Of a stretch of 64,000 nucleotides of DNA, positions 6,774-21,363 are shown in pieces. Location: positions 32,001-96,000 of the IMG/VR virus record IMGVR_UViG_2974673715_000001, one strand, 5' to 3'. Each line of letters begins with the position of its first letter. The stretch's first letter is position 1. The notes beneath the pieces were generated by a model that ran no database searches, had not been told where the DNA came from, and worked only from the letters and a program-made list of their open reading frames with translations. The position numbers were made by a program, and so were the translations under genes. This stretch comes from a virus (Duplodnaviria; Caudoviricetes).

Positions 6774-7314
6774 TAATCAATTCTATTATCAATATAGAAT
6801 GCCTGACTTTGATATTCTTAAAGAAAGGTTAGATACAGTTGAAAAATTTGATGATTCAGATTTCACATGGGGAGACCTATGTAAGATTGAACGTGACTCA
6901 TACAATGTAAATGATTTCTTCGATATTCTAGTCAAACCTCTTGGTTTAATGTCTGGTGATCTTAATGTTAAATTCAATGCTAAATTTTTAAATCCTTGGT
7001 TGAACAGATATAATCGTGGTGGATTTCAAGAGATACATTATCATGATGATTGTGACATTGCAGGTGTGGTATTTTTAAATGATGGTGAAGATTTCTCAAA
7101 ATTTTATTTCTGGGACGCTCACCATACATCATTTACTAAACCTTGGATTAAGATACTCACTCAGATGAAGTTGTCTAACATATATTATCCAGAGGTGAAA
7201 GCGGGTGATGTTTTGTTATTTCCCTCACATATGTTACATGGTGTTTCCCCTCATAATTCTGATACGATTAGAAAGACATTTTCTTTTAATGTGGTAGTGA
7301 CAAATGTTGAATGA
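6757..7314 (+). CDS. 2OG-Fe(II) oxygenase (TIGR02466-like)
   Basis: WLNRY...QEIHYH...GDVLLFPSHMLHGVSP...RKTFSFN. Confidence 0.85.
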   Translation: MKQIFSNQFYYQYRMPDFDILKERLDTVEKFDDSDFTWGDLCKIERDSYNVNDFFDILVKPLGLMSGDLNVKFNAKFLNPWLNRYNRGGFQEIHYHDDCDIAGVVFLNDGEDFSKFYFWDAHHTSFTKPWIKILTQMKLSNIYYPEVKAGDVLLFPSHMLHGVSPHNSDTIRKTFSFNVVVTNVE

Positions 7315-7870
7315 AGTGTATCTAACTGATAATTTCTTGAGTGATGACATTTGTAATTGGTTCATGTCATTTCATCAAACTATGTTTCCTTTATATGGAT
7401 CAGAGTTTGAGAATAGAAGGATTATTAATTTAACAGAACTAACTCATGTTCTCTATAATAATAATCTACCTTATGATGTAACAGATTATCTAAAGATAGT
7501 CCAAGCAAACTTGACTACAGAGGTTAGGAAGTACGACCCTAAAGCATTTCCTAATTATATTCATTGCACAGAGTGGACAGCACCAATCTATCAACCAATA
7601 CACACAGATTTTGATGAACACGTCTGGACATCTATTCTATACTTGAATGATAACTTCACAGGTGGTAATACTATTATTGAAGGTGAAAAGATACCGCCAA
7701 AAAAAGGTGGTAATACTATTATTGAAGGTGAAAAGATACCGCCAAAAAAAGGAAGTGTTATCACCTTTAAAGGAGAGTTAAAACATGGAGTTGAAGAAGT
7801 CACAGAGGGTAATCGTTATACTATTTCGGTATGGTATAAAAATCACATAGGAGTAAACAAATACAGATGA
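7304..7870 (+). CDS. 2OG-Fe(II) oxygenase (prolyl-hydroxylase-like)
   Basis: HTD...SILYLNDNFTGG...HGVEEVTEGNRYTISVW. Confidence 0.85.
   Translation: MLNEVYLTDNFLSDDICNWFMSFHQTMFPLYGSEFENRRIINLTELTHVLYNNNLPYDVTDYLKIVQANLTTEVRKYDPKAFPNYIHCTEWTAPIYQPIHTDFDEHVWTSILYLNDNFTGGNTIIEGEKIPPKKGGNTIIEGEKIPPKKGSVITFKGELKHGVEEVTEGNRYTISVWYKNHIGVNKYR
7661..7750 (+). repeat. Perfect 45-bp in-frame tandem duplication
   Basis: ggtggtaatactattattgaaggtgaaaagataccgccaaaaaaa twice, encoding GGNTIIEGEKIPPKK twice. Confidence 0.95.
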
Positions 7871-8478
7871 TAATAGATTTATTCCCAACATCAATTTACA
7901 TGGATAGTTTTGAATTATCCCCCGAAGATCATGCAAATTTATCTCAAGTAAAACTTAGTAGAAACAGAGATCAATGTGCATGGGTCAGTTCACATATACA
8001 TTTACTTGATTGGTATCAAAGTATTGAAGTTAAAGTAAGAAAGCACGTTGAACAGTACGTTTATAATGACATTGGTTTGAGTAGAGGATATAATATGCAA
8101 TGTCATGGTGCATGGTTGAACAGAAATGATAAAGGAGATTACACAGAGATACATCATCATTCTAATTCACTTATAAGTGGTGTATATTATTTGTCGGTCA
8201 ATGACCAACAAGGACGTATTCAATTCTATGATGATAAAGATGGATTGTTTGGTAGATATTTCACAGTATTAAATTACACTGAACCTAACAATAGAAATTC
8301 TCATAGAGCAAACGTAGAATGTAAGAATGGAACGATCGTGTTATTTCCCTCACGTCTGAAGCATAGCGTTGCACCCAATCTATTGGAAGAACCTAGATTC
8401 TCACTAGCATTTGATTACACACTAGAAGGTGTATTTGATGCAATGGTGAATAAGGTGAACTATGTGCCAGTTAAATGA
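7867..8478 (+). CDS. 2OG-Fe(II) oxygenase (TIGR02466-like)
   Basis: LFPT...WLN...HHHSNSLISGVYYL...LFPSRLKHSV...RFSLAF. Confidence 0.88.
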   Translation: MIIDLFPTSIYMDSFELSPEDHANLSQVKLSRNRDQCAWVSSHIHLLDWYQSIEVKVRKHVEQYVYNDIGLSRGYNMQCHGAWLNRNDKGDYTEIHHHSNSLISGVYYLSVNDQQGRIQFYDDKDGLFGRYFTVLNYTEPNNRNSHRANVECKNGTIVLFPSRLKHSVAPNLLEEPRFSLAFDYTLEGVFDAMVNKVNYVPVK

Positions 8479-8520
8479 ACTGTCCACAGACTCGCCATTT
8501 CAAAAAAATTGTGTTATACT
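8463..8520 (+). promoter_or_regulatory. Palindrome-promoter module 1 (longer variant)
   Basis: tgtgccagt-taaatga-actgtccaca; TGnTATACT with -10 at 8515-8520. Confidence 0.7.
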
Positions 8521-8543
8521 AATAGGGTAACGCAAACAGAACA

Positions 8544-8714
8544 ATGCCACATTTCACTCTCATCTGCACAGACGAAGATGAGACCCTCACAAAAAAAGAG
8601 TTTGATGCCGACATTCTTGATGATGTTGTCGATAAAACTGCCGACTTCCTACATGGAGTAGGTTATTGTTTCGAGGATCTTTCAACGCAAGTGTATCCAA
8701 CTCAGAAAACCTGA
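8544..8714 (+). CDS. Small acidic hypothetical protein (56 aa, not in ORF track)
   Basis: MPHFTLICTDEDETLTKKEFDADILDDVV..., first ATG after module 1. Confidence 0.7.
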   Translation: MPHFTLICTDEDETLTKKEFDADILDDVVDKTADFLHGVGYCFEDLSTQVYPTQKT

Positions 8715-8752
8715 TACATACTACAAGTAGTTTACTATTTTACACACTCAAA

Positions 8753-8914
8753 ATGGGTAAGACATTTCGGCGAGGTGGTAGCGAACAAGGTTACTATTCT
8801 TATGGTAAATCAATCCGAGACAAGCGACAAACAAAAATGGTAATTAAGAAAATCGAACATGAAAACAAAAGGGAATTAAAAAATGAAAGATCAAAACGCA
8901 ATACGTCTGAATGA
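8753..8914 (+). CDS. Small basic hypothetical protein
   Basis: MGKTFRRGG...; ATG at 8753 within the tracked ORF 8666-8914. Confidence 0.6.
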   Translation: MGKTFRRGGSEQGYYSYGKSIRDKRQTKMVIKKIEHENKRELKNERSKRNTSE

Positions 8915-9161
8915 AAGTTCTGATGTAAAATATCAGAGAGCATTAGACCTTTTTACCGAGTCAGTTATGAAACCAGACCCCGATTTGCGTGGGTGTGCCT
9001 ATAATCAGGATTGTTTCAATGAACTGATGGAGATAAGGGAACACGTTTTGAAATATCTTTCAACGTTGAAATCAACACAAAACTTTGAAAACCCAGATGA
9101 ATCCGATACAATAGAACAAGAGAAGTTGGAACACACTTCCCCTTTATCTAAATGGAGATAA
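8883..9161 (+). CDS. Hypothetical protein
   Basis: ORF in a tightly packed operon. Confidence 0.7.
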   Translation: MKDQNAIRLNESSDVKYQRALDLFTESVMKPDPDLRGCAYNQDCFNELMEIREHVLKYLSTLKSTQNFENPDESDTIEQEKLEHTSPLSKWR

Positions 9162-9353
9162 ATGTATCTTAAATCTGCTATATTAACTAAAATGCAAAAA
9201 GAACTATTGAAAGATGCTCTATTGGCATACGTTTCAAATTTACAGAAACGATACTATGGGGATAAAATCATTGATGAATCTCTTTATCTAAGTAAGATGA
9301 AAGAAATTCAGAATATTGTTGATGAACTACATTTACAGGAGTTATACACATAA
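9162..9353 (+). CDS. Hypothetical protein
   Basis: Abuts both neighbours. Confidence 0.65.
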   Translation: MYLKSAILTKMQKELLKDALLAYVSNLQKRYYGDKIIDESLYLSKMKEIQNIVDELHLQELYT

Positions 9354-9526
9354 TGTTTCGTAAAGAAATTAAACTATTGAAGCACGCTATCAAGAAAGGT
9401 CAGGAAGACCCATTTCTATACAGCGAAGAGGAGTTTCATAAACTCAAGAAGAAACTTAGGCAACTCAGGGAGTGGAAGAGATCGACTATTATAGCACAGA
9501 AGGGTGGATTTGGATACGAAGTGTGA
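9353..9526 (+). CDS. Hypothetical protein (57 aa, not in ORF track)
   Basis: MFRKEIKLLKHAIKK...GGFGYEV; TAATG coupling; stop lies inside palindrome 2. Confidence 0.7.
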   Translation: MFRKEIKLLKHAIKKGQEDPFLYSEEEFHKLKKKLRQLREWKRSTIIAQKGGFGYEV

Positions 9527-9580
9527 CAGTTAAGTTAGTGTCACAACCCTATTGACATTACTTGTAATATCGTTTATATT
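9522..9580 (+). promoter_or_regulatory. Palindrome-promoter module 2 (with canonical -35)
   Basis: tgtgacagt-taagtt-agtgtcaca; TTGACA 9552-9557, 17-nt spacer, TATATT 9575-9580. Confidence 0.85.
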
Positions 9581-9586
9581 AAGAAT

Positions 9587-9679
9587 GTCGAAACAAACCA
9601 ACGTAAAACTTTCAAGGTAACGGATACCCAGAGGAATACGTTTTTAAGTCGAACTTAAGTAGTTGAGTTTTGTTTCGAC
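9587..9679 (+). ncRNA. Candidate structured RNA or leader (93 nt)
   Basis: Starts at the predicted TSS. Perfect 11-bp closing stem GTCGAAACAAA/TTTGTTTCGAC, inner stem AACGTA/TACGTT, hairpins GGTA-ACGGA-TACC and TTAAGT-CGA-ACTTAA. Confidence 0.6.
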
Positions 9680-9698
9680 CCACCTATTATTTTTTGAC

Positions 9699-10304
9699 AT
9701 GGAAGTCCAAGCACATGGTAACAAATTTGAAGACATTGTAACTCGTGAGAGAACTGGTCTATCAAAGAAAGAATATGATGCTCTAAAGAAGAATGGTTAT
9801 ACCTCATCATTTGATTTATCAAAAGGTCTTAAGGTAGAGTATGATGCTAGTATTAAAACTACTGGCAACAATACTATTTGCTGTTCTGATATTCTCAGAA
9901 TGATGAGACATAATGATTATAGACTAATTGTTGGGTGCTACGATCAAGTAGGAGATCAAAAAATATTTCACACACAATATGAGTTTTTTATTCAACCAAA
10001 AGACTACCTAACTTTATGGGGAGACATGGATTTTCAAAGAGTAGAATTCTTTGTAAACTATGTTAAGAGTATTCCACAGGGAGCAAAAGCAAGAGACGAT
10101 TCTAAATTAGTTAGAGATAATTTGCAAGAAAGTGTATCATGCGATAAAGCATTATATACTATCAATCCAAAGGTAGATAGTAAGAAACAAAGAAGAGTTC
10201 AATGCTCATTAAAACTTGACGAACTAATTGCAAGTGGTGTAGAATATGAAAAGAAAGATATATCTTTAATCCTAGAATCTAAAAAACGTACGTTTAATAA
10301 ATGA
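9699..10304 (+). CDS. Putative restriction-endonuclease-like (PD-(D/E)xK) protein
   Basis: HGNKFE...SSFDL...ASIKTT resembles an E...D...SxK nuclease core; overlaps the MTase start (ATGA-like coupling). Confidence 0.5.
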   Translation: MEVQAHGNKFEDIVTRERTGLSKKEYDALKKNGYTSSFDLSKGLKVEYDASIKTTGNNTICCSDILRMMRHNDYRLIVGCYDQVGDQKIFHTQYEFFIQPKDYLTLWGDMDFQRVEFFVNYVKSIPQGAKARDDSKLVRDNLQESVSCDKALYTINPKVDSKKQRRVQCSLKLDELIASGVEYEKKDISLILESKKRTFNK

Positions 10305-10801
10305 GAGCATTTTGCCCACCAAAAAATACACCTGAGAAAGATATAGTGATGACCCCAGAGTATCTTGCTAAGGAGATCATTAATCATTTCAATCCTACTG
10401 GTAGAATTCTTGACCCTAGTAGAGGAGAAGGTGCATTTTATGATAATTATGATACGGATAATAAAGATTGGTGTGAACTAGGAGAGGGAAGAGATTTCTT
10501 ACAATATCAAAAGAAAGTTGATTGGATTATTACTAATCCGCCTTGGTCTATGATGCAACAATTTTTAGTGCATGGCATGGAAGTGGCGGACAATATTGTA
10601 TATTTAACAACGATCAATCATTATACTACTAAACGTAGAATAAGAGATATGAGAGAATATAACTTTGCAATTAAAGAGATATATAATGTTCCCACACCTA
10701 CAAAACCTTGGCCACAACTAGGGTTTCAACTAGCTGCTGTTCATACACAGAGAGATTATAAAGGAAATATTAAGTTTTCTTATTCCCCTGATCTTTCCTG
10801 A
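10301..10801 (+). CDS. Small amino (probably N6-adenine) DNA methyltransferase
   Basis: Motif I ILDPSRGEGAF, followed by motif IV IITNPPW. Confidence 0.85.
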   Translation: MRAFCPPKNTPEKDIVMTPEYLAKEIINHFNPTGRILDPSRGEGAFYDNYDTDNKDWCELGEGRDFLQYQKKVDWIITNPPWSMMQQFLVHGMEVADNIVYLTTINHYTTKRRIRDMREYNFAIKEIYNVPTPTKPWPQLGFQLAAVHTQRDYKGNIKFSYSPDLS

Positions 10802-10807
10802 TATAAT
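10799..10807 (+). promoter_or_regulatory. Extended -10 promoter TGATATAAT
   Basis: TGn-TATAAT about 70 nt upstream of the ATG at 10879. Confidence 0.5.
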
Positions 10808-10878
10808 ATGACTACATACTTGTGTCAATCCTACGATTGATATTTACCGCCTAATTAGGGCATTACAGATTAACTATT

Positions 10879-12009
10879 ATGAATAGAAACCAGAGACGTA
10901 AGCAACGTGTAGATGTTGCTGATTTATTTTATCTTGAGAAAATTATTTCAATAGATGAGTGGCATGACGAGTGGGAAGTTTGCCCAATACAAAGAGACCA
11001 CGAAGAGAGAGCAAGAAAACCTAAGCACAGAAATAAGTTTTCTACACTAGAATCATCACACTTAGAAGTAGATGGTGCAGTATTAACAAAAGATTGTTAC
11101 GACCCAGAGACGAAAAAGACATACAAAGCAGGAACTAGATTTAAAACTAACGGACATACTAGAGACGCACACTGGTGGTCAGATGATACTGACGATTGGC
11201 AACCCTCACACGTTCGTGTAAAGTATAAAGAACACGAAACAATTAAATCCATATACAAAGAATACTTAATGCACGACAACCCAGATGACGCAGAAATTGC
11301 ATCTGATAGGGTAGATGGTGCGTATCGTGCTGTATTTGGAGAGAGGAATATTGTAATTAAAGATGGTAAGTTGCGTAAAGTTGAACCATTACAACACGCA
11401 GCTTTACTATGTTTTTCTAACAAGTATAACGTCAAGATGAAAACAAATACTGTTAACATCAAGATGTGGGTTAGTGATATTGAAGACGCTGTTTTATGGG
11501 TTCGTAAAGTATATCTTGATTCTGAATTTAATAGTTGGAAGCAAACAACTCTACCACACTATAACCCATTTACTTGGGCATATCTTGTTTCTTATATGAA
11601 GTATAAGGAAGTTCCAGAAGCACTAGAAAAACTAAAGGAATTGATATTCAGAGTATCTAATTATGAAGTGGTAGTTGACCCCTCAAATGGACGTGAAGAT
11701 AGATTTAGTCCTCTAAATGTATTATTGAGAGAGTGGCAACAACTCAAAGCAGGTACGTCAAGGTATGTTCAGACCTCAGCAATGAACGGAAGTTATCCCT
11801 CTAACAATATGAAATCATTTACACTATTGTGTATTGATAAATTTATTGAAGGTAAGTATCTTAGTAAAGATGGTAGCATGAGAGGTGTTAACTGGAAAGC
11901 ATACTTAGAAGAGTGGGAACTTGCTTGGAAAGTAGCACATGGTATGACAGCACCTCACGTTGAGTATGCGACATTACCAATAGAGATGTTCCCCGAAGAC
12001 GAAGACTAG
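10879..12009 (+). CDS. Hypothetical protein, possible ParB/DGQHR-like N-terminal domain
   Basis: CPIQRD...NGHTR resembles the QR...DGQHR signature; weak. Confidence 0.45.
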   Translation: MNRNQRRKQRVDVADLFYLEKIISIDEWHDEWEVCPIQRDHEERARKPKHRNKFSTLESSHLEVDGAVLTKDCYDPETKKTYKAGTRFKTNGHTRDAHWWSDDTDDWQPSHVRVKYKEHETIKSIYKEYLMHDNPDDAEIASDRVDGAYRAVFGERNIVIKDGKLRKVEPLQHAALLCFSNKYNVKMKTNTVNIKMWVSDIEDAVLWVRKVYLDSEFNSWKQTTLPHYNPFTWAYLVSYMKYKEVPEALEKLKELIFRVSNYEVVVDPSNGREDRFSPLNVLLREWQQLKAGTSRYVQTSAMNGSYPSNNMKSFTLLCIDKFIEGKYLSKDGSMRGVNWKAYLEEWELAWKVAHGMTAPHVEYATLPIEMFPEDED

Positions 12010-12064
12010 ACCAGTTAGGATAGTGTCACAACCCCTCGACAGAGGGGTTTTTTTATGCTATACT
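12007..12064 (+). promoter_or_regulatory. Palindrome-promoter module 3
   Basis: tagaccagt-taggat-agtgtcaca; TGCTATACT with -10 at 12059-12064. Confidence 0.75.
12031..12054 (+). terminator. Rho-independent terminator
   Basis: ACCCCTC-GACA-GAGGGGT followed by a T-run. Confidence 0.85.
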
Positions 12065-12084
12065 GATTGTATTGAAAGGTTATT

Positions 12085-13341
12085 ATGCAACTACGTCCAC
12101 ACCAAACAAGAGCATTCAACTCTATGCAAGAGAGTAACAAGGGTCAAATCATTGTTCCTACTGGTGGTGGTAAAACATACATCATGATTGCTGATACTCT
12201 TAAGAGATTCAAGTTACCAGTTGCACAGACTACAGTTGTAGTTGCACCTCGTATCTTACTTGCTAATCAATTGTGTGCAGAGTTCCTAGAGCATAATCTA
12301 GATGGATATTATAATCAAGGTGTTGATGTTGCTCATGTTCACTCAGGAGAGACTCATCACTTCAGCACAACAAATCAATTTGAATTAAATACTTGGGTCA
12401 ACAACAGCAAAAAGCACATTTTGATATTTACCACATATCATTCACTTCAAAAGGTCGTCAATGCAGTTGATGTAGAAGTTGATACTATTTACTTTGATGA
12501 AGCACATAATGGTTGTGGTAAGCACTTCCATATTGCTCTATCTCAAATAGTCCAGTATGCAAAGAGGAGTTATTTCTTTACAGCAACACCTCGCATGGGT
12601 CGTGGTGTATCACTTGACAGAGGTATGAACAACACCGCAGTATATGGTGGTGTATTGGAGAATGTTCCCGCACAGGAACTTATCAAGTCAGGTGCTATTG
12701 TTCCCCCTAAGATTGTTCCCTTTGAGACTCGTAACTCAACCCCTCGTGACAAGTATAATGCTCATGAGATTGATGCTGATAACCTCAGAGATATTATCGA
12801 TACATTTGATGATAGTCAGAACAACAAGATTCTAGTTGCAGCACCTAGTTCAAGAGTCTTGGGTAATATGCTCGGACATACTACTATTCTTGAGTATTTC
12901 AAGGACAATGGATATGACGTTATGCACATCACATCAAAGTTTGGTGCTATCATCAATGGCACAAAAGTTGGTAGAGAAGAGTTTTTTGACACACTCACAA
13001 AGTGGGGTCAGGACGATAGCAAAAGATTTGTTATTTTCCACTATTCAATACTATCTGAAGGTATCAATGTTCCAGGTTTGACTCATACAGTTTTGTTGAG
13101 AAACCTACCTATCATTGAAATGGCACAGACTATTGGTCGTGTCATTCGAGTTCATTCTGATGATCGTAAATCAGTTGCTGATGGTCTCATTCCTGCAGGT
13201 GCATTTCACTTATACAAAAAACAATTTGGACAAGTAAGTGTTCCTACTGGACAAAAACGTGGAGACGCAATTGGTAAAAGATTGCAGAATGTAGTCAATC
13301 AAATTTTTGTTGATGGTGTTCCCCCTATCGCTTATTGCTAA
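12085..13341 (+). CDS. SF2 DEAH helicase (ResIII-like)
   Basis: LRPHQ Q-motif, PTGGGKT, YFDEAH, FTATP, LSEGINV, QTIGRVIR. Confidence 0.9.
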   Translation: MQLRPHQTRAFNSMQESNKGQIIVPTGGGKTYIMIADTLKRFKLPVAQTTVVVAPRILLANQLCAEFLEHNLDGYYNQGVDVAHVHSGETHHFSTTNQFELNTWVNNSKKHILIFTTYHSLQKVVNAVDVEVDTIYFDEAHNGCGKHFHIALSQIVQYAKRSYFFTATPRMGRGVSLDRGMNNTAVYGGVLENVPAQELIKSGAIVPPKIVPFETRNSTPRDKYNAHEIDADNLRDIIDTFDDSQNNKILVAAPSSRVLGNMLGHTTILEYFKDNGYDVMHITSKFGAIINGTKVGREEFFDTLTKWGQDDSKRFVIFHYSILSEGINVPGLTHTVLLRNLPIIEMAQTIGRVIRVHSDDRKSVADGLIPAGAFHLYKKQFGQVSVPTGQKRGDAIGKRLQNVVNQIFVDGVPPIAYC

Positions 13342-14294
13342 TGAAATTAAGACCACAAAAAGATACAATTTTATATGGGGATTGTAGGAATACAATTCCC
13401 ACTATACATGAGAGAGTCCAGATGTGTGTAACTTCCCCCCCTTATTATGGACTAAGGGATTATGGTGGAGAGTCGTCACAAATAGGACAAGAACAAACAC
13501 CCGAAGAATATATTGAAGAACTTGTAAAAGTATTCAGAGAAGTTAAGAATGTTTTGGCAGATGATGGAACTTTATGGTTAAACATAGGGGATAGTTATTA
13601 TAACTATAGACCTGGAAAAGGTCAATCATATCCTAAACAAACAGTATCTAAAACTAAACAAGATTTACCTGATAAATGTAACAAACGAGGTAACAAATTA
13701 GAAGGATTAAAAGAGAAAGACCTTATTGGTATTCCTTGGTTGTTAGCGTTTGCATTACGCAAAGATGGGTGGTATTTAAGACAGGATATTATTTGGCATA
13801 AACCTAATCCAATGCCAGAAAGTGTAAAAGATAGATGCACAAAAGCACATGAATATATTTTCTTATTCTCTAAGAACAAGAAATATTATTATGACAATGA
13901 AGCAATTAAAGAACCTGCAAAAGATTGGGGAACTAGAGATAGAACTAAAGGAAAGTATCATAATAAAGGAACTGGATTAAGTCCTCATACTGGACTCAAT
14001 AAGAGTTATCCTACAAAGAATAAAAGATCAGTATGGTCAGTAACTAATAAACCATATAAGGGAACTCACTTTGCAGTATTTCCCCCTGACTTAATTGAAC
14101 CTTGTATCCTAGCAGGGAGTAAGAAAGGAGATTTAATTCTTGACCCATTTATGGGTAGTGGCACAACAGCAATGGTATCTAAACAATTAGATAGGCATTA
14201 TATTGGTTGTGAATTGCATGAAGAATATAAATCGCTGATAGATTCAAGATTACCAAACACAGCACTTACTGACTTGATGGAATGTGACAGTTAA
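13341..14294 (+). CDS. DNA methyltransferase, beta class (N4-C/N6-A)
   Basis: TSPPY motif IV precedes DPFMGSGTT motif I; TAATG-coupled to the helicase. Confidence 0.92.
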   Translation: MKLRPQKDTILYGDCRNTIPTIHERVQMCVTSPPYYGLRDYGGESSQIGQEQTPEEYIEELVKVFREVKNVLADDGTLWLNIGDSYYNYRPGKGQSYPKQTVSKTKQDLPDKCNKRGNKLEGLKEKDLIGIPWLLAFALRKDGWYLRQDIIWHKPNPMPESVKDRCTKAHEYIFLFSKNKKYYYDNEAIKEPAKDWGTRDRTKGKYHNKGTGLSPHTGLNKSYPTKNKRSVWSVTNKPYKGTHFAVFPPDLIEPCILAGSKKGDLILDPFMGSGTTAMVSKQLDRHYIGCELHEEYKSLIDSRLPNTALTDLMECDS

Positions 14295-14341
14295 CGTACT
14301 GCACACTATCAGTTGCATATGACCCTATAGTCACTTATAGT
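14283..14341 (+). promoter_or_regulatory. Palindrome-promoter module 4
   Basis: tgtgacagt-taacgt-actgcacac; TATAGT 14336-14341. Confidence 0.75.
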
Positions 14342-14365
14342 ATATTCATACAACAGATTTTTATT

Positions 14366-14776
14366 ATGTCAACAAATGCAAGAATCGCACTCAAACTTTC
14401 CGATAAAACTTTTGTTTCAGTTTATCATCATTGGGACGGTTATCCTGAGTGGTTGGGTGTAGTCCTAACTGAACAGTATAACAAACTAGAGTCTGTTATT
14501 GAACTTCTCTCAGGTGGAGACATGAGTTCATGTTGGTCAGATAATGAGTATGATTTCGAGAAAAAGGAATTTGTAAAACGTGACCCTAAACCTACTTACT
14601 ACTCAGAGAGAGGAGAGTCAGCACCCCCTAGAATCGCACACTCAATTACAGAGTTCCTAGATCATTGTGACCAGTGTGGTGGAGAATTCGGTTATGTCTA
14701 TGATAAGGGAGAGTGGTTCGCTTATGAGACTACAGACCGCACTCTAGTTGACATTCCACAGGAGATAGAAGAATGA
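14366..14776 (+). CDS. Conserved phage hypothetical protein
   Basis: MSTNARI...SVYHHWDGYPEWLG...LLSGGDMS. Confidence 0.75.
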   Translation: MSTNARIALKLSDKTFVSVYHHWDGYPEWLGVVLTEQYNKLESVIELLSGGDMSSCWSDNEYDFEKKEFVKRDPKPTYYSERGESAPPRIAHSITEFLDHCDQCGGEFGYVYDKGEWFAYETTDRTLVDIPQEIEE

Positions 14777-14982
14777 AGTTTATAGTAAAAGACATTGAAC
14801 TCTATTTAAGTGAAGTTGGAGACGGAGACCCCGATTTACAATTCACAGATCAAGAAGAGTATGTAATGCACCAAAGATGTCTAGGTAGATGGACAGCAAG
14901 AAATGAAAAACATTTAAAAGAAAGGATTTTTGATTTCATAGGTTATCATGTAGAGTTTATTGACTACGAGGTAAAAGCATGA
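14773..14982 (+). CDS. Hypothetical protein
   Basis: GGAG RBS and ATGA overlap. Confidence 0.7.
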   Translation: MKFIVKDIELYLSEVGDGDPDLQFTDQEEYVMHQRCLGRWTARNEKHLKERIFDFIGYHVEFIDYEVKA

Positions 14983-15140
14983 AAACCTACCCACTTCCGA
15001 AGGTGCTACAGAGACATGGTATTGAAATCATGTTGATGAATGAACAGCAAAGAAAAATCTGGATAGAGGACGTTAAAAAGATACACCCAGATTTTCCGTT
15101 TGACAGCATGGTGTATGACACTCACACTAGTGGCACATAG
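14979..15140 (+). CDS. Hypothetical protein (53 aa, not in track)
   Basis: MKTYPLPKVLQRHG...; GAGG RBS; reads through palindrome 5. Confidence 0.6.
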   Translation: MKTYPLPKVLQRHGIEIMLMNEQQRKIWIEDVKKIHPDFPFDSMVYDTHTSGT

Positions 15141-15172
15141 TTCCCCCATTCCCCTCTATCATACCCTATACT
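15114..15172 (+). promoter_or_regulatory. Palindrome-promoter module 5
   Basis: tatgacact-cacact-agtggcaca; CCCATT; TATACT 15167-15172. Confidence 0.8.
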
Positions 15173-15192
15173 AAGAATAGTTAAAGAAACAA

Positions 15193-15333
15193 ATGCAAAC
15201 CATTCCATTCTACGACTTCCCAAAATCCCCTATTCTCATTCTAGGGTTTTTTGGAATTGTAGTCGCACTCGTCACACTTTACGTTGTTAATGTAAAGTAT
15301 TTCAATAGTCCATTCAACGAGGATAACAACTAA
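15193..15333 (+). CDS. Small single-pass membrane protein (46 aa, not in track)
   Basis: MQTIPFYDFPKSPILILGFFGIVVALVTLYVVNVKYFNSPFNEDNN. Confidence 0.7.
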   Translation: MQTIPFYDFPKSPILILGFFGIVVALVTLYVVNVKYFNSPFNEDNN

Positions 15334-15512
15334 TGCTAGATTTTTTATCAGATGTCTTAGAGGATTTTTGCTCTAAGAATAATCTACCACTCATGAGTGC
15401 AGATGACCTATTATATGCACCTGCATGGTCAGAAATCAATCTTTCTCAACCTCAAAAAAATTGGTTAACCAATTATATTGAAGTGTGGGATATTATCCAA
15501 GAAAATTCTTAA
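15333..15512 (+). CDS. Hypothetical protein (59 aa, not in track)
   Basis: MLDFLSDVLEDFCSKNNLPLMSADDLL...; TAATG coupling. Confidence 0.7.
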   Translation: MLDFLSDVLEDFCSKNNLPLMSADDLLYAPAWSEINLSQPQKNWLTNYIEVWDIIQENS

Positions 15513-15525
15513 GGAGAACTTTATC

Positions 15526-15735
15526 ATGACAACTCAAGAACGTGACAATGCAATTACTCAAATGTCTAAGCACTTGTTTAGTGTGATGCAGACCAGAGTC
15601 AAAGAGGACAGGCATCTAGATGCCCTATCAATTTGCGAGGAGTGGGTAGTAAATGGCAAAGACCCTCAGGACGAGGATACAGAGTTCATTTTTATTCCTA
15701 ACACAACTTTTGGCGATTGGACATGGGAGGTGTGA
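15526..15735 (+). CDS. Hypothetical protein
   Basis: AAGGAG RBS before the ATG at 15526. Confidence 0.7.
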   Translation: MTTQERDNAITQMSKHLFSVMQTRVKEDRHLDALSICEEWVVNGKDPQDEDTEFIFIPNTTFGDWTWEV

Positions 15736-15789
15736 CAGTACGTTTAGTGTCACATAGTTTCCCTATTCATATCCATTACTCACTATAAT
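15731..15789 (+). promoter_or_regulatory. Palindrome-promoter module 6
   Basis: tgtgacagt-acgttt-agtgtcaca; CCCTATT; TATAAT 15784-15789. Confidence 0.85.
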
Positions 15790-15795
15790 AAAGAC

Positions 15796-15957
15796 ATGAA
15801 CAAAACAACACCAAGAGAAAAAACCATTATCAAACTTATGGAAATGGTTATTGACACACTTAAGTATTGTGATGATCTTGATGACCCTGCATTTGCAATG
15901 TATGATGTCATGAGAGACGCAGTTGAAAAAGAAGTTCGCTATCCTATGGAGTTTTAA
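15796..15957 (+). CDS. Hypothetical protein (53 aa, not in track)
   Basis: MNKTTPREKTIIKLMEMVIDTL... Confidence 0.6.
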   Translation: MNKTTPREKTIIKLMEMVIDTLKYCDDLDDPAFAMYDVMRDAVEKEVRYPMEF

Positions 15958-15960
15958 CTA

Positions 15961-16254
15961 ATGAATCAAAACGACAAGAACAAACTTGAAAAATTTGGTA
16001 TGACTCAAAATGAGTTGAATGAACTAAGATACCATTATGTTGACAGATATGTTGAAAATATGTCAACTAAGGATTTAGTCCAGTATGTCTTTGATGATTT
16101 GCTCAATTATGTTCATAATCAACCAGATGCAGAATTTGTTGATGAAGCACAAAACTATTGGGAAGATCACTATGATGATGTTGTTACTGACATCAAAGAG
16201 TATGCTAACAGCGATTTCAAAAAACCTTTAGAGGAGAGAAGAAACAATGACTAG
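15961..16254 (+). CDS. Acidic hypothetical protein
   Basis: ORF with GGAG RBS. Confidence 0.7.
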   Translation: MNQNDKNKLEKFGMTQNELNELRYHYVDRYVENMSTKDLVQYVFDDLLNYVHNQPDAEFVDEAQNYWEDHYDDVVTDIKEYANSDFKKPLEERRNND

Positions 16255-16378
16255 ATCAGAACTAGAAAACAAGATTATCAATTTCGTTTTAGAGAATAAT
16301 CTTGATGCTTCATTTGTGCAACAAACAGAGGGATTAACTTATGTTCGCTTCACAGTAGAAGAGGATTTTGAAGAATGA
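16247..16378 (+). CDS. Hypothetical protein (43 aa, not in track)
   Basis: MTRSELENKIINFV...; GAGGAG RBS. Confidence 0.6.
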   Translation: MTRSELENKIINFVLENNLDASFVQQTEGLTYVRFTVEEDFEE

Positions 16379-16593
16379 TAAAAATTGAATTAACAAAAGG
16401 ACAATTTCAAGAAATCTATGATGCAGTTAGGGATTTACCTGACGAGATCAGAGAAGACTTAAAACTTGATGGGGAAGAACCTGATACAGCACATTTAGAT
16501 TTGTTTAGTGCAGTTGATGAACTTGCAAGAATTGATAAGAGACTCAACAAACAATTTAAGCAAGTAAAACTCAATTCGCCAGATTGGGAGTGA
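16375..16593 (+). CDS. Hypothetical protein
   Basis: ATGA overlap; stop in palindrome 7. Confidence 0.7.
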   Translation: MIKIELTKGQFQEIYDAVRDLPDEIREDLKLDGEEPDTAHLDLFSAVDELARIDKRLNKQFKQVKLNSPDWE

Positions 16594-16647
16594 CAGTTAA
16601 TTATGTGTCACACACTACCACGCATAGGTTACAAAATACCCTATAAT
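16589..16647 (+). promoter_or_regulatory. Palindrome-promoter module 7
   Basis: agtgacagt-taatta-tgtgtcaca; TATAAT 16642-16647. Confidence 0.8.
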
Positions 16648-16673
16648 AAGAATAAGCAAACAAAGAACAAAAA

Positions 16674-16835
16674 ATGATTCCAGAAACATTGCCAGTTCAC
16701 ATGAGTGGAGATCAACTCTACAATATGGTAAAACTCTATGATCTACTCAGAGATATGAGTTTTGAACTCACACCCGAACAGATCGAAGTGTTCGAGAATA
16801 TTCAAGATGCAGAAGTCAACGGAGGATTTTTCTAA
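16674..16835 (+). CDS. Hypothetical protein (53 aa, not in track)
   Basis: MIPETLPVHMSGDQLYNMVKLYDLL... Confidence 0.65.
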   Translation: MIPETLPVHMSGDQLYNMVKLYDLLRDMSFELTPEQIEVFENIQDAEVNGGFF

Positions 16836-17020
16836 TGAAATCATTTACATCAAAAGTTACGATCGTTTTTGATATTAATAATCATGAAGCGAACTCTAAA
16901 GAAGAGTATATCCAAAAGTTAAAAGATCAGTATGAAGAATGTTATGGCATTTACCTACACGATCATGAGATCACAATGATCGAAGAGGAAGAACCAATTA
17001 ATCTTTATCAGGGAGCATAA
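16835..17020 (+). CDS. Hypothetical protein
   Basis: GGAGG RBS; TAATG coupling. Confidence 0.7.
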   Translation: MKSFTSKVTIVFDINNHEANSKEEYIQKLKDQYEECYGIYLHDHEITMIEEEEPINLYQGA

Positions 17021-17202
17021 TGGAAAGTTACTTAAACCTATTTGAGCATATCCCAGAGGACGAGCATTCACATATTTCTAACAAGATATGGGAAGCACTT
17101 GATCGGGCAGGGATTGAACTAAGTCAAGATGCAGAATTATCAATCCGCATTTATGATGATAACTATGAAGGAGAATATGATGGGGAAGAGTATGACAGTT
17201 AA
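17020..17202 (+). CDS. Highly acidic hypothetical protein
   Basis: TAATG coupling; D/E-rich. Confidence 0.7.
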   Translation: MESYLNLFEHIPEDEHSHISNKIWEALDRAGIELSQDAELSIRIYDDNYEGEYDGEEYDS

Positions 17203-17249
17203 ACAAGTGTCACGTACGTTTACCATTCCACTCTATTATCCTTTATAAT
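17191..17249 (+). promoter_or_regulatory. Palindrome-promoter module 8
   Basis: tatgacagt-taaaca-agtgtcacg; CCATT; TATAAT 17244-17249. Confidence 0.8.
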
Positions 17250-17273
17250 AATAGTAATTAAACATTTTTTATT

Positions 17274-17444
17274 ATGATACAGTATTTTATTGAAATCCCA
17301 AATACACCGATCAGAGAACCAGTGAGCGGTTTTTGCTATGACATTCTATATGATATGGCACAACAGTATGGTCATGCAGAATTAGTATGGTATGCTAATA
17401 ATGGCACTAGAATGATACAGGGCATTTATACAGATAAAGATTAA
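17274..17444 (+). CDS. Hypothetical protein (56 aa, not in track)
   Basis: MIQYFIEIPNTPIREPVSGFCYDILYDMAQQYGHAELV... Confidence 0.7.
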   Translation: MIQYFIEIPNTPIREPVSGFCYDILYDMAQQYGHAELVWYANNGTRMIQGIYTDKD

Positions 17445-17471
17445 TTAATTCATTCAAAGGAGATTTTTAAA

Positions 17472-17717
17472 ATGGGTGCTAAATGTGACGTGTGTGCTAA
17501 TTTTGATGAGACTTATAGGCAAGAAATGGAATTCCCTAAAGATTCCGATCATTGCATTCAAGATTATCAACCCGATCTTTATTACTATTGGGATAGTCCA
17601 ATAGAAGAGGATTATAATTGGAGAGACGAATTTCCTCATGCTGATTGTATGTGCGAGATATGTTTTGATATAGCAAACTCAGAAAAGAAAATCAAATGGA
17701 ATTGTGCCAGTTGTTAA
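17472..17717 (+). CDS. Cys-rich (possible Zn-binding) hypothetical protein
   Basis: CDVC...CMCEIC; AAGGAG RBS. Confidence 0.7.
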   Translation: MGAKCDVCANFDETYRQEMEFPKDSDHCIQDYQPDLYYYWDSPIEEDYNWRDEFPHADCMCEICFDIANSEKKIKWNCASC

Positions 17718-17761
17718 AGTGTCACATAGTTTCCCTATTCCTATACATTTACCTTTATAAT
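17703..17761 (+). promoter_or_regulatory. Palindrome-promoter module 9
   Basis: tgtgccagt-tgttaa-agtgtcaca; CCCTATT; TATAAT 17756-17761. Confidence 0.85.
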
Positions 17762-17783
17762 ATTAGTATATTCAACAAACATC

Positions 17784-18014
17784 ATGCACAACTTCAAAGA
17801 ATTTCTAGACTATTGTGAATCATTCTACAACCCATCACACCCAGATGTTTTATATCCTATTGATGGGTTAACTCGTGAAGAGTTAGCACTTGCTACACTC
17901 ACATACCTAGACTTATGTGCATCATCTGATGGTCAAGTAAACTGGGGAGACGGAGATAGTTTAGATCGTGAGAGAGTCAGAGATTTTGTTTACGCAAGGA
18001 GGTCAGTAGCATGA
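17784..18014 (+). CDS. Conserved phage hypothetical protein
   Basis: FLDYCESFY...LYPI...WGDGDSLDRERVRD. Confidence 0.75.
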   Translation: MHNFKEFLDYCESFYNPSHPDVLYPIDGLTREELALATLTYLDLCASSDGQVNWGDGDSLDRERVRDFVYARRSVA

Positions 18015-18184
18015 GGAAATTTATAATTCTAGAGAGATTTGTAGGTTATAATGATATAACGATCGAAGCGAATACCGAAGAGGAAGCGATCGAACTTTAT
18101 AATCGTGGACATTTTCCCGATAGTGCGGTAGATCAAGATGATATGTTTTACGATTTTGAATTTAGAGATATACGTCCAGAATGA
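18011..18184 (+). CDS. Hypothetical protein (57 aa, not in track)
   Basis: MRKFIILERFVGYNDITIEANTEEEAIELY...; AAGGAGG RBS. Confidence 0.7.
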   Translation: MRKFIILERFVGYNDITIEANTEEEAIELYNRGHFPDSAVDQDDMFYDFEFRDIRPE

Positions 18185-18360
18185 TGGAAGAATTAACAGA
18201 AAAACAAAAGTTGCTCATTCACTTGAATGAAGTTAAAAACATATTGAACAATTGCACATCACTTGATGATGAGTTAATTGGAATATACCAGAATTTTAAC
18301 GCTATCACATACGAGGACATTTTTAAACCATTAATGGACAGTTCAAATACTGTCACATAA
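18181..18360 (+). CDS. Hypothetical protein (59 aa, not in track)
   Basis: MMEELTEKQKLLIHL...; reads through palindrome 10. Confidence 0.6.
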   Translation: MMEELTEKQKLLIHLNEVKNILNNCTSLDDELIGIYQNFNAITYEDIFKPLMDSSNTVT

Positions 18361-18391
18361 TTTGACCATTCACACTATTATGGACTATAAT
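18334..18391 (+). promoter_or_regulatory. Palindrome-promoter module 10
   Basis: atggacagt-tcaaat-actgtcaca; CCATT; TATAAT 18386-18391. Confidence 0.8.
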
Positions 18392-18414
18392 AGTAGTATA
18401 AACAAAGAGGATTT

Positions 18415-18573
18415 ATGAACAACACTTATCAATTCACTGATGCACAGATGAGAGTCATCAATGTAATGCTCACATATTTTGACGAGTTGGGAATCAATCC
18501 AAAATACAAAACCGATTTTGAAAGTCTTTATGACTATATTCAAACAGGCGGAGAACTATTTTTAGGAGAGTAA
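18415..18573 (+). CDS. Hypothetical protein (52 aa, not in track)
   Basis: MNNTYQFTDAQMRVINVML...; GAGG RBS. Confidence 0.65.
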   Translation: MNNTYQFTDAQMRVINVMLTYFDELGINPKYKTDFESLYDYIQTGGELFLGE

Positions 18574-18574
18574 A

Positions 18575-18757
18575 ATGTCAGTATCACATCACGAGAGCAT
18601 TCTCGAAACTTGCTATGATGAAGCATGGATAGACTACGCAAAAGAGCATGGTCTAACATACGATCAACTTACAACACTTGAGCAAAATTCTGACTACGGT
18701 ATTCTACCAGAGATCGAAGCAGAAGCAAGAAAAAGATTTGAGGACTTGTGCCAGTAG
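18575..18757 (+). CDS. Conserved phage hypothetical protein
   Basis: MSVSHHESILETCYDEAW...ARKRFEDLCQ; AGGAG RBS. Confidence 0.75.
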   Translation: MSVSHHESILETCYDEAWIDYAKEHGLTYDQLTTLEQNSDYGILPEIEAEARKRFEDLCQ

Positions 18758-18805
18758 GAATACTGTCACATAGTTCCCCCATTCAACCCACCTATCCTTT
18801 ATAAT
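18747..18805 (+). promoter_or_regulatory. Palindrome-promoter module 11
   Basis: tgtgccagt-aggaat-actgtcaca; CCCATT; TATAAT 18800-18805. Confidence 0.85.
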
Positions 18806-18827
18806 AAGAGTAACAACAAACAAATCT

Positions 18828-19016
18828 ATGAGAATGACTAAAAAGCAAGCAGTTCAGCAATTTAGATGGGATTGGTCAGACTTCCTAAAATCTAACCCTA
18901 GTTGGAGGGGAGACAAAATTGCAAAGAGGTGTGCTTTTAATGATTTTGTTGATGCTCTCAACAAAGATGGTCTAGTTACAGATTATCAAGCATATAACTG
19001 GTCAAACCCATTCTAA
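18828..19016 (+). CDS. Conserved phage hypothetical protein
   Basis: MTKKQAVQQFR...FNDFVDALNKDGLVT...WSNPF. Confidence 0.75.
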   Translation: MRMTKKQAVQQFRWDWSDFLKSNPSWRGDKIAKRCAFNDFVDALNKDGLVTDYQAYNWSNPF

Positions 19017-19030
19017 GGAGATTTTTAAAA

Positions 19031-19288
19031 ATGACAACTATCGAACTTTTAGAAGAGTCACTCAAGCAGTTAAAGATTATTCAACTTGAAAATCTGAAGA
19101 GAGAACCGAACCACCCCAGAAACAAATTTGACTATACTGTTGTAGTTCCCGATACTGATCTAGGTTATCATGAACACTATACAATGGATTTAGAAGTTGC
19201 CAAAAAAAGTGCAATCGAGTGGGCAAGAGACTACGGTCGGGCATCTGTAGAAGATCGTAACCTAAAAACAGTATTCGCAGTGCGGTAG
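19031..19288 (+). CDS. Hypothetical protein
   Basis: AAGGAG RBS. Confidence 0.7.
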   Translation: MTTIELLEESLKQLKIIQLENLKREPNHPRNKFDYTVVVPDTDLGYHEHYTMDLEVAKKSAIEWARDYGRASVEDRNLKTVFAVR

Positions 19289-19347
19289 TGTGACAGTACG
19301 ATTAGTGGCACATGGTAACCCCATTGTCACTAGTTTACCTTTATAAT
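19289..19347 (+). promoter_or_regulatory. Palindrome-promoter module 12
   Basis: tgtgacagt-acgatt-agtggcaca; CCCATT; TATAAT 19342-19347. Confidence 0.85.
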
Positions 19348-19377
19348 AATAGTATAAGAAACAAACTTCTAAAAAAC

Positions 19378-19659
19378 ATGACAATCTCAGAATACAAAAA
19401 ACTTCTAAAAAACGACACTCTTATGATCGGTCTTGATGTATCTGAAGAGAAAACAAACAGAGTCATCAACAGAATTCTCGAAGTTGACAACTTTCAAAAT
19501 GTTGCTTGCTATTGTGCAGACTTCTCAGAATTTGTAGAAGAGTTGGCAGAGTGGGGTGTTGATGGGTGTGCTAAGGTCGATTTTGATGACCCTGATCTAG
19601 ACATTGCTAAACTAGACAGATTTATCAAATCTGAAAACGGATACATTAGGGGAGAGTAA
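19378..19659 (+). CDS. Hypothetical protein
   Basis: First ATG after module 12; the track start at 19312 lies upstream of the -10 box. Confidence 0.7.
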   Translation: MTISEYKKLLKNDTLMIGLDVSEEKTNRVINRILEVDNFQNVACYCADFSEFVEELAEWGVDGCAKVDFDDPDLDIAKLDRFIKSENGYIRGE

Positions 19660-19814
19660 TGGAACTAACCCCTAAACAACTTGAGTATGTCCTCGAATGT
19701 CTCAATTTTCATTATGCAGAGAATGAGCATATTAAAAAGGACATTATCGAACTTAACGCTAGTATATGCAGACTAGTAGCAAACCAATTACAGGAGATTT
19801 ACAAAAATGACTAG
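19659..19814 (+). CDS. Hypothetical protein (51 aa, not in track)
   Basis: MELTPKQLEYVLECLNFHY...; GGAG RBS; TAATG coupling. Confidence 0.65.
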   Translation: MELTPKQLEYVLECLNFHYAENEHIKKDIIELNASICRLVANQLQEIYKND

Positions 19815-20034
19815 AGCAGAATACGAGTTAGTTTTTCAAGCATTTAAAAACTATCGTCTTTATATGACAGATGAGCAAGAGGTCTTAAGCGAGAAAATTC
19901 TAGACGATCTTTTTTATCCCGAATTCGATAAACTTAAGGGAATCGAAGAGACCGCAGGAGATTTACCAGTTTTAGAAATTCCCGAAGATCTCGAAGAGAC
20001 CCCATCAGAAATTAAATCACTTAATTTTCGATAA
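19807..20034 (+). CDS. Acidic hypothetical protein
   Basis: AGGAG RBS. Confidence 0.7.
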   Translation: MTRAEYELVFQAFKNYRLYMTDEQEVLSEKILDDLFYPEFDKLKGIEETAGDLPVLEIPEDLEETPSEIKSLNFR

Positions 20035-20046
20035 GTCAACGTACCT

Positions 20047-20105
20047 TGTGACACTTTGATTAGTGGCACAGGGTTTCCCCATTTGTGGATCGCCCGCCCT
20101 ATAAT
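20047..20105 (+). promoter_or_regulatory. Palindrome-promoter module 13
   Basis: tgtgacact-ttgatt-agtggcaca; CCCATT; TATAAT 20100-20105. Confidence 0.85.
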
Positions 20106-20137
20106 TATAGTATAACAAACAAAGAAACCTTTTTATT

Positions 20138-20449
20138 ATGAGAAAAGTCGAAGCAACAATGAACTCAATGATTCGCAACGGTGTAGCATGGTCAGATGGT
20201 AATACTTGCACTACTTACGATAATGATGGAAATTGCCTAGTTTACCTACATGGCAATCATATCGCAACTGTAGGCGATTCATTCATGGCAATCTTTGACG
20301 GTGGTTATCAATCAAACACCACTAAGAGCAGACTCAACGCATTGCTACAAGAATTCAGACCACACACAAAAGTGTTCGCTAAAAACTTTCAATGGTTCAT
20401 TAAAGCACATAATTCAGTAGTTCCATTTATCTCAGGGAGTCTAGTATAA
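20138..20449 (+). CDS. Conserved phage hypothetical protein
   Basis: MRKVE...VYLHGNHIA...DGGYQSNTTKSRLNALL. Confidence 0.75.
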   Translation: MRKVEATMNSMIRNGVAWSDGNTCTTYDNDGNCLVYLHGNHIATVGDSFMAIFDGGYQSNTTKSRLNALLQEFRPHTKVFAKNFQWFIKAHNSVVPFISGSLV

Positions 20450-20700
20450 TGACAGTATTGAATGAGTATGAAAAAATGTTCAATACCGTCTTATCTCTAC
20501 ACTTTGGGAGAACATTCTGGATAGATGACGAAAATAACCTATGTTCAGCACCAACTTATAAAGATGGTTCTACACATTGGGAACAATGGGATTATGTTAG
20601 TGAGTGGACAGACTTAGAAGGTATCAACCTCGATAAATTACTTGATGTTCATAAAACTTGCCTAGAATATAAAAACTATGGTGCGGAGGATTTTACCTAG
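20449..20700 (+). CDS. Hypothetical protein
   Basis: TAATG coupling. Confidence 0.7.
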   Translation: MTVLNEYEKMFNTVLSLHFGRTFWIDDENNLCSAPTYKDGSTHWEQWDYVSEWTDLEGINLDKLLDVHKTCLEYKNYGAEDFT

Positions 20701-21154: not shown

Positions 21155-21221
21155 TTATCGGAATTATTGGATAAAACAGCGAAGAGACAGAAATGCGGAA
21201 AATAAATAAATATTGAAATAA

Positions 21222-21328: not shown

Positions 21329-21333
21329 AGGGC

Positions 21334-21363
21334 TTGACATTATTGGGAGTTATGCCTTATAAT
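21334..21363 (+). promoter_or_regulatory. Sigma70-type promoter
   Basis: TTGACA-N18-TATAAT. Confidence 0.85.

Follow-up and report, generated by a model that had tools for sequence, protein, structure and literature searches.

Palindrome-headed promoter units in a T4-like cyanophage and the host regulator PlmA as their putative reader

Introduction

We know of no study so far that names the reader of the early promoters of T4-like cyanophages. For two of these phages, Syn9 and P-TIM40, a 'novel regulatory element' for early-gene transcription, abundant among T4-like cyanophages, is said to have been described by Doron et al. in 2016 (ISME J 10:1437). Here we analyze an array of 13 palindrome-headed promoter units located between positions 8463 and 20105 of a 64,000-nucleotide stretch of viral DNA. 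This stretch (the window, to which all positions refer unless stated otherwise) comprises bases 32001–96000 of a 176,495-bp virus record, IMGVR_UViG_2974673715_000001, which is estimated to be 100% complete. The promoter class to which these units belong was known in T4-like cyanophages before, and the array as a sequence feature is ordinary for this phage group.

Repeated promoter units of T4-type phages have also been described as promoter-early stem-loop (PeSL) cassettes (Arbiol et al. 2010, PMC2839356; Comeau et al. 2014, PMC4122927). In these, the -35 and -10 hexamers follow the sigma-70 consensus, an AT-rich tract lies upstream, and a stem-loop with a G/C tract serves as terminator. The PeSL papers mention neither cyanophages nor a palindrome, and a low PeSL density is given for S-PM2 in the S-PM2 paper. 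T4-like cyanophages are without the T4 MotA/AsiA system, according to PMC5780444.

On the host side, a palindromic element of 21–22 nt, CGRE1, is common to the yfr2 promoters of marine Synechococcus and Prochlorococcus; it starts 55–57 nt before the start site and is flanked by GTTG or GTTA as an inverted repeat 13–14 nt apart (Lambrecht et al. 2018, PMC6191309, as for the following statements). A pull-down with the yfr2 promoter recovered the GntR-family protein PMM1637 of Prochlorococcus MED4, a homologue of PlmA, which occurs in all cyanobacteria and only in cyanobacteria. PMM1637 shifts the yfr2 and yfr4 promoters, with an R50A mutant as comparison, and raises reporter expression in E. coli, and both Yfr2 and Yfr4 are up under high light and nitrogen starvation (PMC6191309). 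CGRE1 is found nowhere else in the MED4 genome, as stated in PMC6778093, and in the accessible literature using the term CGRE1 no link to phages was found.

We give a probability of about 0.6 to the reading that the 13 units are early-type, activator-dependent promoters read by a host factor, for which PlmA would be the best candidate, with a secondary role as cassette junctions.

Results

A palindrome at a fixed distance from a -10 box

A preliminary description of the window had listed 13 palindrome coordinates, and each of them was found to hold a 24-mer of the form given there. With the strict pattern TGTGMCAST-N6-ASTGKCACA, nine of the 13 copies matched at two or fewer mismatches, compared to a mean of 0.03 matches in 100 shuffles, none of which reached nine. 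The four weaker copies were those at 8463, 12007, 14283, and 18334. In copy 8463, the spacer is longer by one base and the right arm is a variant; the left arm is degenerate in copies 12007 and 18334, which nevertheless scored 25.3 and 24.9 bits, respectively, on a weight matrix built from 12 copies; with 16.3 bits, copy 14283 did not exceed a non-promoter site elsewhere in the genome (16.6 bits). Copy 4 excepted, this matrix set the units apart from the rest of the genome. The central spacers were all different, as had been claimed, in 12 of the 12 cases with six bases.

Importantly for the reading as promoters, a -10-like hexamer started 52 or 53 nt from the palindrome start, that is, 28–29 nt past its end, in all 13 window copies. 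This confirms the TATAAT-like box that had been noted at 28–29 nt in copies 2–13 and adds one for copy 1, and the constant 52–53 offset supports the view that these are promoter cassettes of one type with a fixed geometry. The same offset held for 15 of 15 units in the genome, namely the 13 in the window and two others. The description of the -35 position as usually CC(C/T)ATT was generous, as six of the 13 copies carry it, while a CCATT or CTATT core is found in 10 of 13; the canonical TTGACA claimed for copy 2 is present, copy 10 has TTGACC, and copy 3 has a terminator-like hairpin instead. This hairpin layout, between palindrome and -10 at the place of the -35, was also observed in the homologous S-SSM5 unit (42126) and in several viral contigs.

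Outside the window, three more units were found at genome positions 129542, 131997, and 152242, preceding a gene for a 740-aa peptidase-like protein (phrog_459), cobS (phrog_249), and a DUF6267 gene, respectively. The units at 129542 and 152242 were detected with the palindrome weight matrix and the one at 131997, which has half a palindrome, with a matrix of the promoter part. The promoter-part matrix gave 18 genome hits, 15 of which had served to train it; all were on the + strand and 16 had a palindrome upstream. A variant right arm ending in GTCCAC is common to unit 1, two of the outside units, and three units of S-SSM5.

Other readings of the site were set aside. The CRP/FNR consensus is TGTGA-N6-TCACA, and the phage site shares its outer words TGTGA and TCACA as well as the placement upstream of a -35-poor promoter. 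However, the outer pentamers of the phage site are 14 bp apart in all copies, not 6, which rules out the CRP-like reading; the centre of the site near -53 is neither a class I nor a class II position, and the phage has no Crp-type helix-turn-helix (HTH) domain. A sigma-54-like reading of the TGGCAC word was dropped because the -12 element is absent; to our knowledge, cyanobacteria lack sigma-54.

The unit is shared by related phages

The motif scan of related genomes that the preliminary description had named as a check found the motif in Syn9, P-TIM40, S-SSM5, and at least 182 viral-contig loci with at least 209 sites of the exact pattern; the figures given below for viral contigs (209 sites, -10 offsets, and the covariation set) cover the matches listed. 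At two or fewer mismatches, Syn9 had five sites and P-TIM40 and S-SSM5 six each, and the reversed control pattern had none. The palindromes of these three phages are clustered in a syntenic region, and the best-scoring -10-like boxes were at the 52–53 offset in P-TIM40, S-SSM5, and two to three of the Syn9 sites. In the viral contigs, -10-like hexamers were located 28, 29, and 30 nt past the site in 13, 89, and 46 cases, respectively, compared to no more than eight at any other offset from 15 to 44. Because it recurs in Syn9, P-TIM40, S-SSM5, and these viral-contig loci, the unit appears to be the common early-type promoter of this phage group.

The caution that the motif class may not be new was right, as Syn9, P-TIM40, and S-SSM5 share both the motif and its spacing. 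In the papers searched that cite or relate to Doron et al. 2016, no description of the early motif was found. The palindrome is present in the reference phages of that study at the equal 52–53 offset; the element reported there is presumably the one described here and would differ in nothing material, and the window phage would be a further carrier with a dense array.

The sequence between the site and the -10 box was not conserved across the viral contigs, and in several it was a G/C hairpin followed by a T-run, indicating that the -35 region is free to vary. This fits the proposal that -35-poor promoters depend on a factor at about -65 to -42. Among the 209 listed sites, a -10-like box was found on one side in 125, on both sides in 17, and on neither in 67. 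In the 17 two-sided cases, a single palindrome may drive a pair of divergent promoters, an arrangement absent from the window.

A protein site in DNA and not a stem in RNA

The palindrome could instead work at the RNA level if it formed a hairpin where the transcript of the upstream cassette ends, with a role as stabilizer, processing site, or attenuator. Its nine-base arms and 6-nt loop are able to fold, the stop codons in or near it in 11 of 13 units mean that it would be transcribed by read-through, and PeSLs join promoters to stem-loops. We consider here the pattern of covariation in 101 unique viral sites oriented by their promoters. Positions 5/20 did not covary (p = 0.79) and were complementary in 56 of the 101 sites, and positions 8/17 avoided complementarity, with 26 of 101 complementary (odds ratio 0.10, p = 6e-7) and pairs distributed as G/G 45, C/C 30, G/C 19, and C/G 7. 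A selected stem would show the opposite pattern, which makes an RNA stem unlikely: no compensatory changes were seen, and conservation is of sequence, not just of pairing. Moreover, the palindromes are not followed by a T-run, the one terminator-like site of the array is a different hairpin, the distance from site to -10 is fixed, and the same site is found upstream of host promoters. We consider the RNA hairpin highly improbable.

With sequence-specific arms, a free centre, and an invariant spacing from the -10 box, the palindrome most likely serves as a protein-binding site in DNA, and the covariation test supports the earlier prediction of a site bound by a factor. Given the preference at 8/17, the majority of sites carry one half-site of each kind and would thus have an intrinsic polarity. 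The host prototype of the site has the same G/G polarity at 8/17.

The phage unit resembles the promoters of host Yfr2 genes

A scan of a genome collection with the exact pattern gave at least 123 loci, some of them cyanobacterial, many from Acidobacteriota, and some evidently phage DNA binned into assemblies. At two cyanobacterial loci among the matches listed, the Cyano-1 RNA of Rfam begins 40 nt past an exact palindrome. We take Cyano-1 to be the Yfr2 family. Its 5' AGGA-containing motif is consistent with PMC6778093. Cyano-1 genes were present in 5/5 genomes and in 39/41 genomes searched, and 40 Cyano-1 upstream regions were examined.

In non-marine cyanobacteria, all five Cyano-1 genes had a near-full site starting 62–65 nt before the RNA model, and the -10-like hexamer 29–31 nt past the site was among the two best in 5/5 and the best in 3/5. 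When the phage-derived matrix was applied, 24 of the 40 upstream windows scored above the 99.99th background percentile (a cut-off of 8.9 bits), compared to about 0.26 expected, and 23 of these 24 sites started at -57 to -65. In marine picocyanobacteria, the promoter-distal arm was well kept and the proximal arm was degenerate, and some marine Yfr2-type genes have an additional, everted arm right in front of it, giving a CAAC-N13-GTTG form. When the window was compared with Rfam at gathering thresholds, there were no hits, indicating that it holds no phage copy of a Yfr2-type RNA.

Among the matches listed, about 49 Acidobacteriota loci (Terracidiphilus, Pyrinomonadaceae, Bryobacteraceae, and others; L203–L280) hold the exact palindrome with unconserved flanks and without a fixed -10 box, and it seems that an unrelated Acidobacteriota regulon uses the same operator word.

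Some matches labelled as cellular have another look. In assemblies G001 and G013, the clustered palindromes seem to lie on phage contigs that were binned with host sequences, and the clusters of phage-type units in assemblies labelled Synechococcus, Nonlabens, and Flavobacteriales (contig C1 of G001 at about 28–139 kb with L212 and L375; L214; L262–L263; small contigs of G013) are probably cyanophage contigs. The 'Synechococcus' match L212 was dropped as a host site, since its contig of about 194 kb has eight sites, six of them within about 7 kb, and more probably represents a phage genome that was binned there. Two 24-mers of L214 are the same as sites of P-TIM40.

Candidate readers of the palindrome

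Because the phage sites resemble the host Yfr2 promoters, the host GntR regulator PlmA (PMM1637) is the best candidate reader, albeit a putative one. The likeness of the phage site to CGRE1 lies in the same half-site words at roughly the same place upstream of the -10 box, and the regulator of CGRE1 acts positively. The half-site word also stands in a yfr4-promoter primer of the PMC6191309 supplement.

The support for PlmA holds in part, as half-site and position would fit and the arrangement in marine hosts does not. The following points weigh against PlmA and against the reading built on it. CGRE1, the element bound by PMM1637, has 21–22 nt and, in the copies seen in marine host genomes, everted, abutting half-sites, whereas the phage site has 24 nt and head-to-head half-sites around a free centre of 4–6 nt; neither arrangement nor length is matched, and one dimer geometry does not obviously fit both. 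The full phage-type form precedes the Cyano-1 genes of non-marine cyanobacteria, whereas the everted form was seen in marine host loci only. CGRE1 starts at -55 to -57, some 5–10 nt from the phage start near -65, a position that assumes transcription to begin 6–7 nt after the -10 box; the host sites lie 57–65 nt before the Cyano-1 model. The scan of candidate hosts, which had been suggested beforehand and did find the near-full site before non-marine Cyano-1 genes, did not find the full palindrome at two or fewer mismatches in 32 of 41 marine host genomes, and most of the remaining ones were no better than the reversed control. Of the 23 marine loci whose site exceeded 8.9 bits, only 13 had their best -10-like hexamer 27–32 nt past the site, the others being ambiguous. 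The identity of Cyano-1 with Yfr2 is presumed. The palindrome word alone does not name its reader, because it is common in Acidobacteriota in unrelated contexts. Finally, the phage record had no GntR, MarR, HTH_Crp_2, or HTH_3 match at E ≤ 1, and these four family searches leave room for a small phage protein of unrecognized type, for example, one carried in the virion.

Such a phage protein, either an injected early activator or an early or middle product that shuts the promoters off, would read the palindrome without any host regulator. In T4, the virion protein Alt modifies the host polymerase (PMC5780444). The array region has dozens of ORFans without a family: of its 47 + strand open reading frames (ORFs), 33 were without a Pfam hit at E ≤ 0.01, and no more than eight exceeded the curated cut-off. 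In addition, the full symmetric site is typical of phages and not of marine host genomes. However, the complete phage record lacks GntR, MarR, Crp-type, and HTH_3 domains, and a repressor would not usually bind at -65 to -42. Phage-free cyanobacterial chromosomes have this very site, equally spaced, before small RNA (sRNA) genes, which further indicates that a cellular reader exists. A phage-encoded reader is thus unlikely in our view, and PlmA remains the preferred candidate.

Units at the joints of gene cassettes

Compared with S-SSM5, the homology blocks end or begin at 9527, 15754, 16613, 19288, and 20047, each at the edge of a palindrome. In S-SSM5, what flanks window units 6 and 12 is brought together at the unit at 46236, indicating that the window phage holds about 3.5 kb of extra cassettes between these two units, which are alike even in their spacers. 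Metatranscriptome contigs from two studies contained near-identical pieces of the array together with relatives that diverge or join at 16590–16594, 17699–17701, 18361, and 19281, with joints from 15151 to 18792, from 18361 to 19341, and from 17699/17701 back to 16592/16594. The short sides of these joints are 20–32 nt aligned at 90% likeness, which gives weak support. Seven RNA records hold part of the stretch, all as contigs; the four that were aligned showed no pile-ups of starts or ends, and array parts that no contig covers are no evidence of silence. With some reserve we suggest, as a secondary effect, that the units of about 80 bp may act as junctions for cassette exchange between related phages.

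This brings the units close to PeSLs: both are repeated promoter units of about 80–100 bp, both have ORFans of a variable region on their flanks, and recombination uses both as junctions. The comparison with PeSLs in the preliminary description holds to this extent. The window units have a good -10 box throughout, but TTGACA or a near match in only two to three of 13; their upstream element is a G/C-containing, sequence-specific palindrome, not an AT-rich tract, and a terminator-like hairpin is present in one of 13 units only. Three defining features of PeSLs are thus missing: the -35 consensus, the AT-richness upstream, and, except in one unit, the stem-loop that terminates.

If the units were mainly recombination junctions like PeSLs, the palindrome would be a homology patch or the target of a recombinase without any role in transcription. 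The S-SSM5 homology breaks at five palindromes, the contigs of natural relatives that skip or reorder cassettes with joints adjoining the units, and the polarity at 8/17, as in recombinase core sites, would all agree with this. However, the fixed 28–30 nt to the -10 box over at least 142 of the 209 listed viral sites is a promoter constraint, in hosts the site stands before sRNA genes that are single and form no cassettes, and the short, 90%-alike sides of the contig joints weaken that part of the argument. A role in recombination alone seems quite improbable to us, and exchange at the units is compatible with their explanation as activator-dependent promoters.

The individual units and their genes

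As had been claimed, each unit precedes few and mostly tiny ORFs: 2–5 on the + strand, mostly of 43–115 aa, units 2 and 3 being the exceptions. The array has 13 units in 11.7 kb, every one on the + strand, and the stop codon of the preceding ORF lies inside the palindrome or no more than 3 nt away in 11 of the 13, indicating tight packing. Unit 1 (8463–8520, +) has the variant palindrome, with the additional spacer base and the GTCCAC end of the right arm, and a -10-like box at 8515–8520, and heads five small ORFs (8544–9526). Unit 2 (9522–9580, +) combines an exact palindrome (9522–9545) and the TTGACA with a -10-like box at 9575–9580, and its ORFs encode 213, 166 (methyltransferase-like, phrog_799), and 376 aa. 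In unit 3 (12007–12064, +), the palindrome with the degenerate left arm (12007–12030) is followed by the terminator-like hairpin at -35 (12030–12049, +), which is the only terminator-like site inside the units of the array, and by a -10-like box at 12059–12064; it precedes a helicase gene (12085–13341, +; 418 aa) and an N6/N4 DNA methylase gene (13335–14294, +; 319 aa). In the region 7000–23000, there were 10 terminator-like sites compared to 7.4 in shuffles. Unit 4 (14283–14341, +), with the weakest palindrome, has its -10-like box at 14336–14341 and ORFs of 136, 69, and 53 aa.

Unit 5 (15114–15172, +) has a palindrome with one mismatch (15114–15137), CCCATT at -35, and a -10-like box at 15167–15172. 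Unit 6 (15731–15789, +) has an exact palindrome (15731–15754), at the end of which the S-SSM5 homology ends, and its -10 box is located at 15784–15789. The palindromes of unit 7 (16589–16647, +; palindrome 16589–16612, -10 box 16642–16647) and unit 8 (17191–17249, +; palindrome 17191–17214, -10 box 17244–17249) have two mismatches each, and that of unit 9 (17703–17761, +; palindrome 17703–17726, -10 box 17756–17761) is exact; the divergence of the relatives' contigs at 16590–16594 and 17699–17701 falls at units 7 and 9, respectively. Unit 10 (18334–18391, +) has a degenerate left arm in its palindrome (18334–18357), the TTGACC at -35, and a -10 box at 18386–18391. The palindromes of the last three units are exact: unit 11 (18747–18805, +; palindrome 18747–18770) has CCCATT at -35 and a -10 box at 18800–18805; unit 12 (19289–19347, +; palindrome 19289–19312) has a -10 box at 19342–19347, with the homology to the S-SSM5 unit at 46236 starting at 19288; and unit 13 (20047–20105, +; palindrome 20047–20070) has a -10 box at 20100–20105, with the S-SSM5 homology starting at its first base. 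Unit 13 precedes a gene of the Kyano_Gp96 family (20138–20449, +) and three more small ORFs on the same strand.

The source phage and the setting of the array

When positions 8400–20200 were compared with phage records by megablast, the matches were T4-like cyanomyoviruses only, among them S-SSM5, P-TIM40, P-TIM68, and S-SSM4, with 77–81% identity over only a few genes, the helicase and the DNA methylases. Judged by these matches, the window phage is a T4-like cyanomyovirus. Its gene order is as in S-SSM5: 2OG-Fe(II) oxygenases come first, followed by small ORFs, by genes for a methyltransferase, a helicase, and a methylase, by further small ORFs, and by a baseplate wedge gene. Three tandem 2OG-Fe(II) oxygenase genes (6745–8478, +) lie directly 5' of the array; in the S-SSM5 counterpart, an endonuclease gene is located between two oxygenases.

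Just beyond the array, there are two perfect sigma-70 consensus promoters (12/12) without a palindrome, at 21334–21363 and 21618–21646 (+), one of which has TG before the -10 box. They precede small ORFs and the baseplate wedge gene (22456–25095), and they may belong to the 'host-like' promoter class that drives middle genes in this phage group.

Discussion

We propose that each unit provides a -10 box of the type used by the host primary sigma factor together with an unconserved -35, and that a 24-bp imperfect palindrome, placed 28–29 nt ahead of the -10 box and thus at about -65 to -42 from the start sites that we infer, would be bound by a two-fold symmetric protein. Once bound, this protein would help the host RNA polymerase to start at promoters poor in -35 contacts. 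The reader would most likely be a host factor, because early promoters must fire before phage proteins exist, and the timing presumed here is early. As the activator we suggest PlmA, the cyanobacteria-specific GntR-family regulator, which is the best candidate because the phage site shares half-site words and approximate place with the element before the PlmA-stimulated Yfr2 sRNA genes.

A further suggestion, which we hold more tentatively and at somewhat less than even odds, is that T4-like cyanophages imitate the promoter of the host Yfr2 stress sRNA with a stronger, fully symmetric PlmA site. PlmA would be tied to the nitrogen and light status of the host via PII-PipX, so early transcription could be gated by the state of the cell, and the approximately 16 high-affinity sites of each phage genome could titrate PlmA from the half-degenerate yfr2 promoters of the host.

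The main question raised by the array is the identity of the palindrome reader, for which PlmA is a concrete candidate. If PlmA is the reader, the onset of infection in the main primary producers of the ocean would hinge on a nutrient and light sensor of the host, which would offer a possible mechanism for light- and nutrient-dependent infection. It would also define a simple, portable, and strong promoter module, and explain how an 80-bp unit can double as a seam for swapping small early genes.

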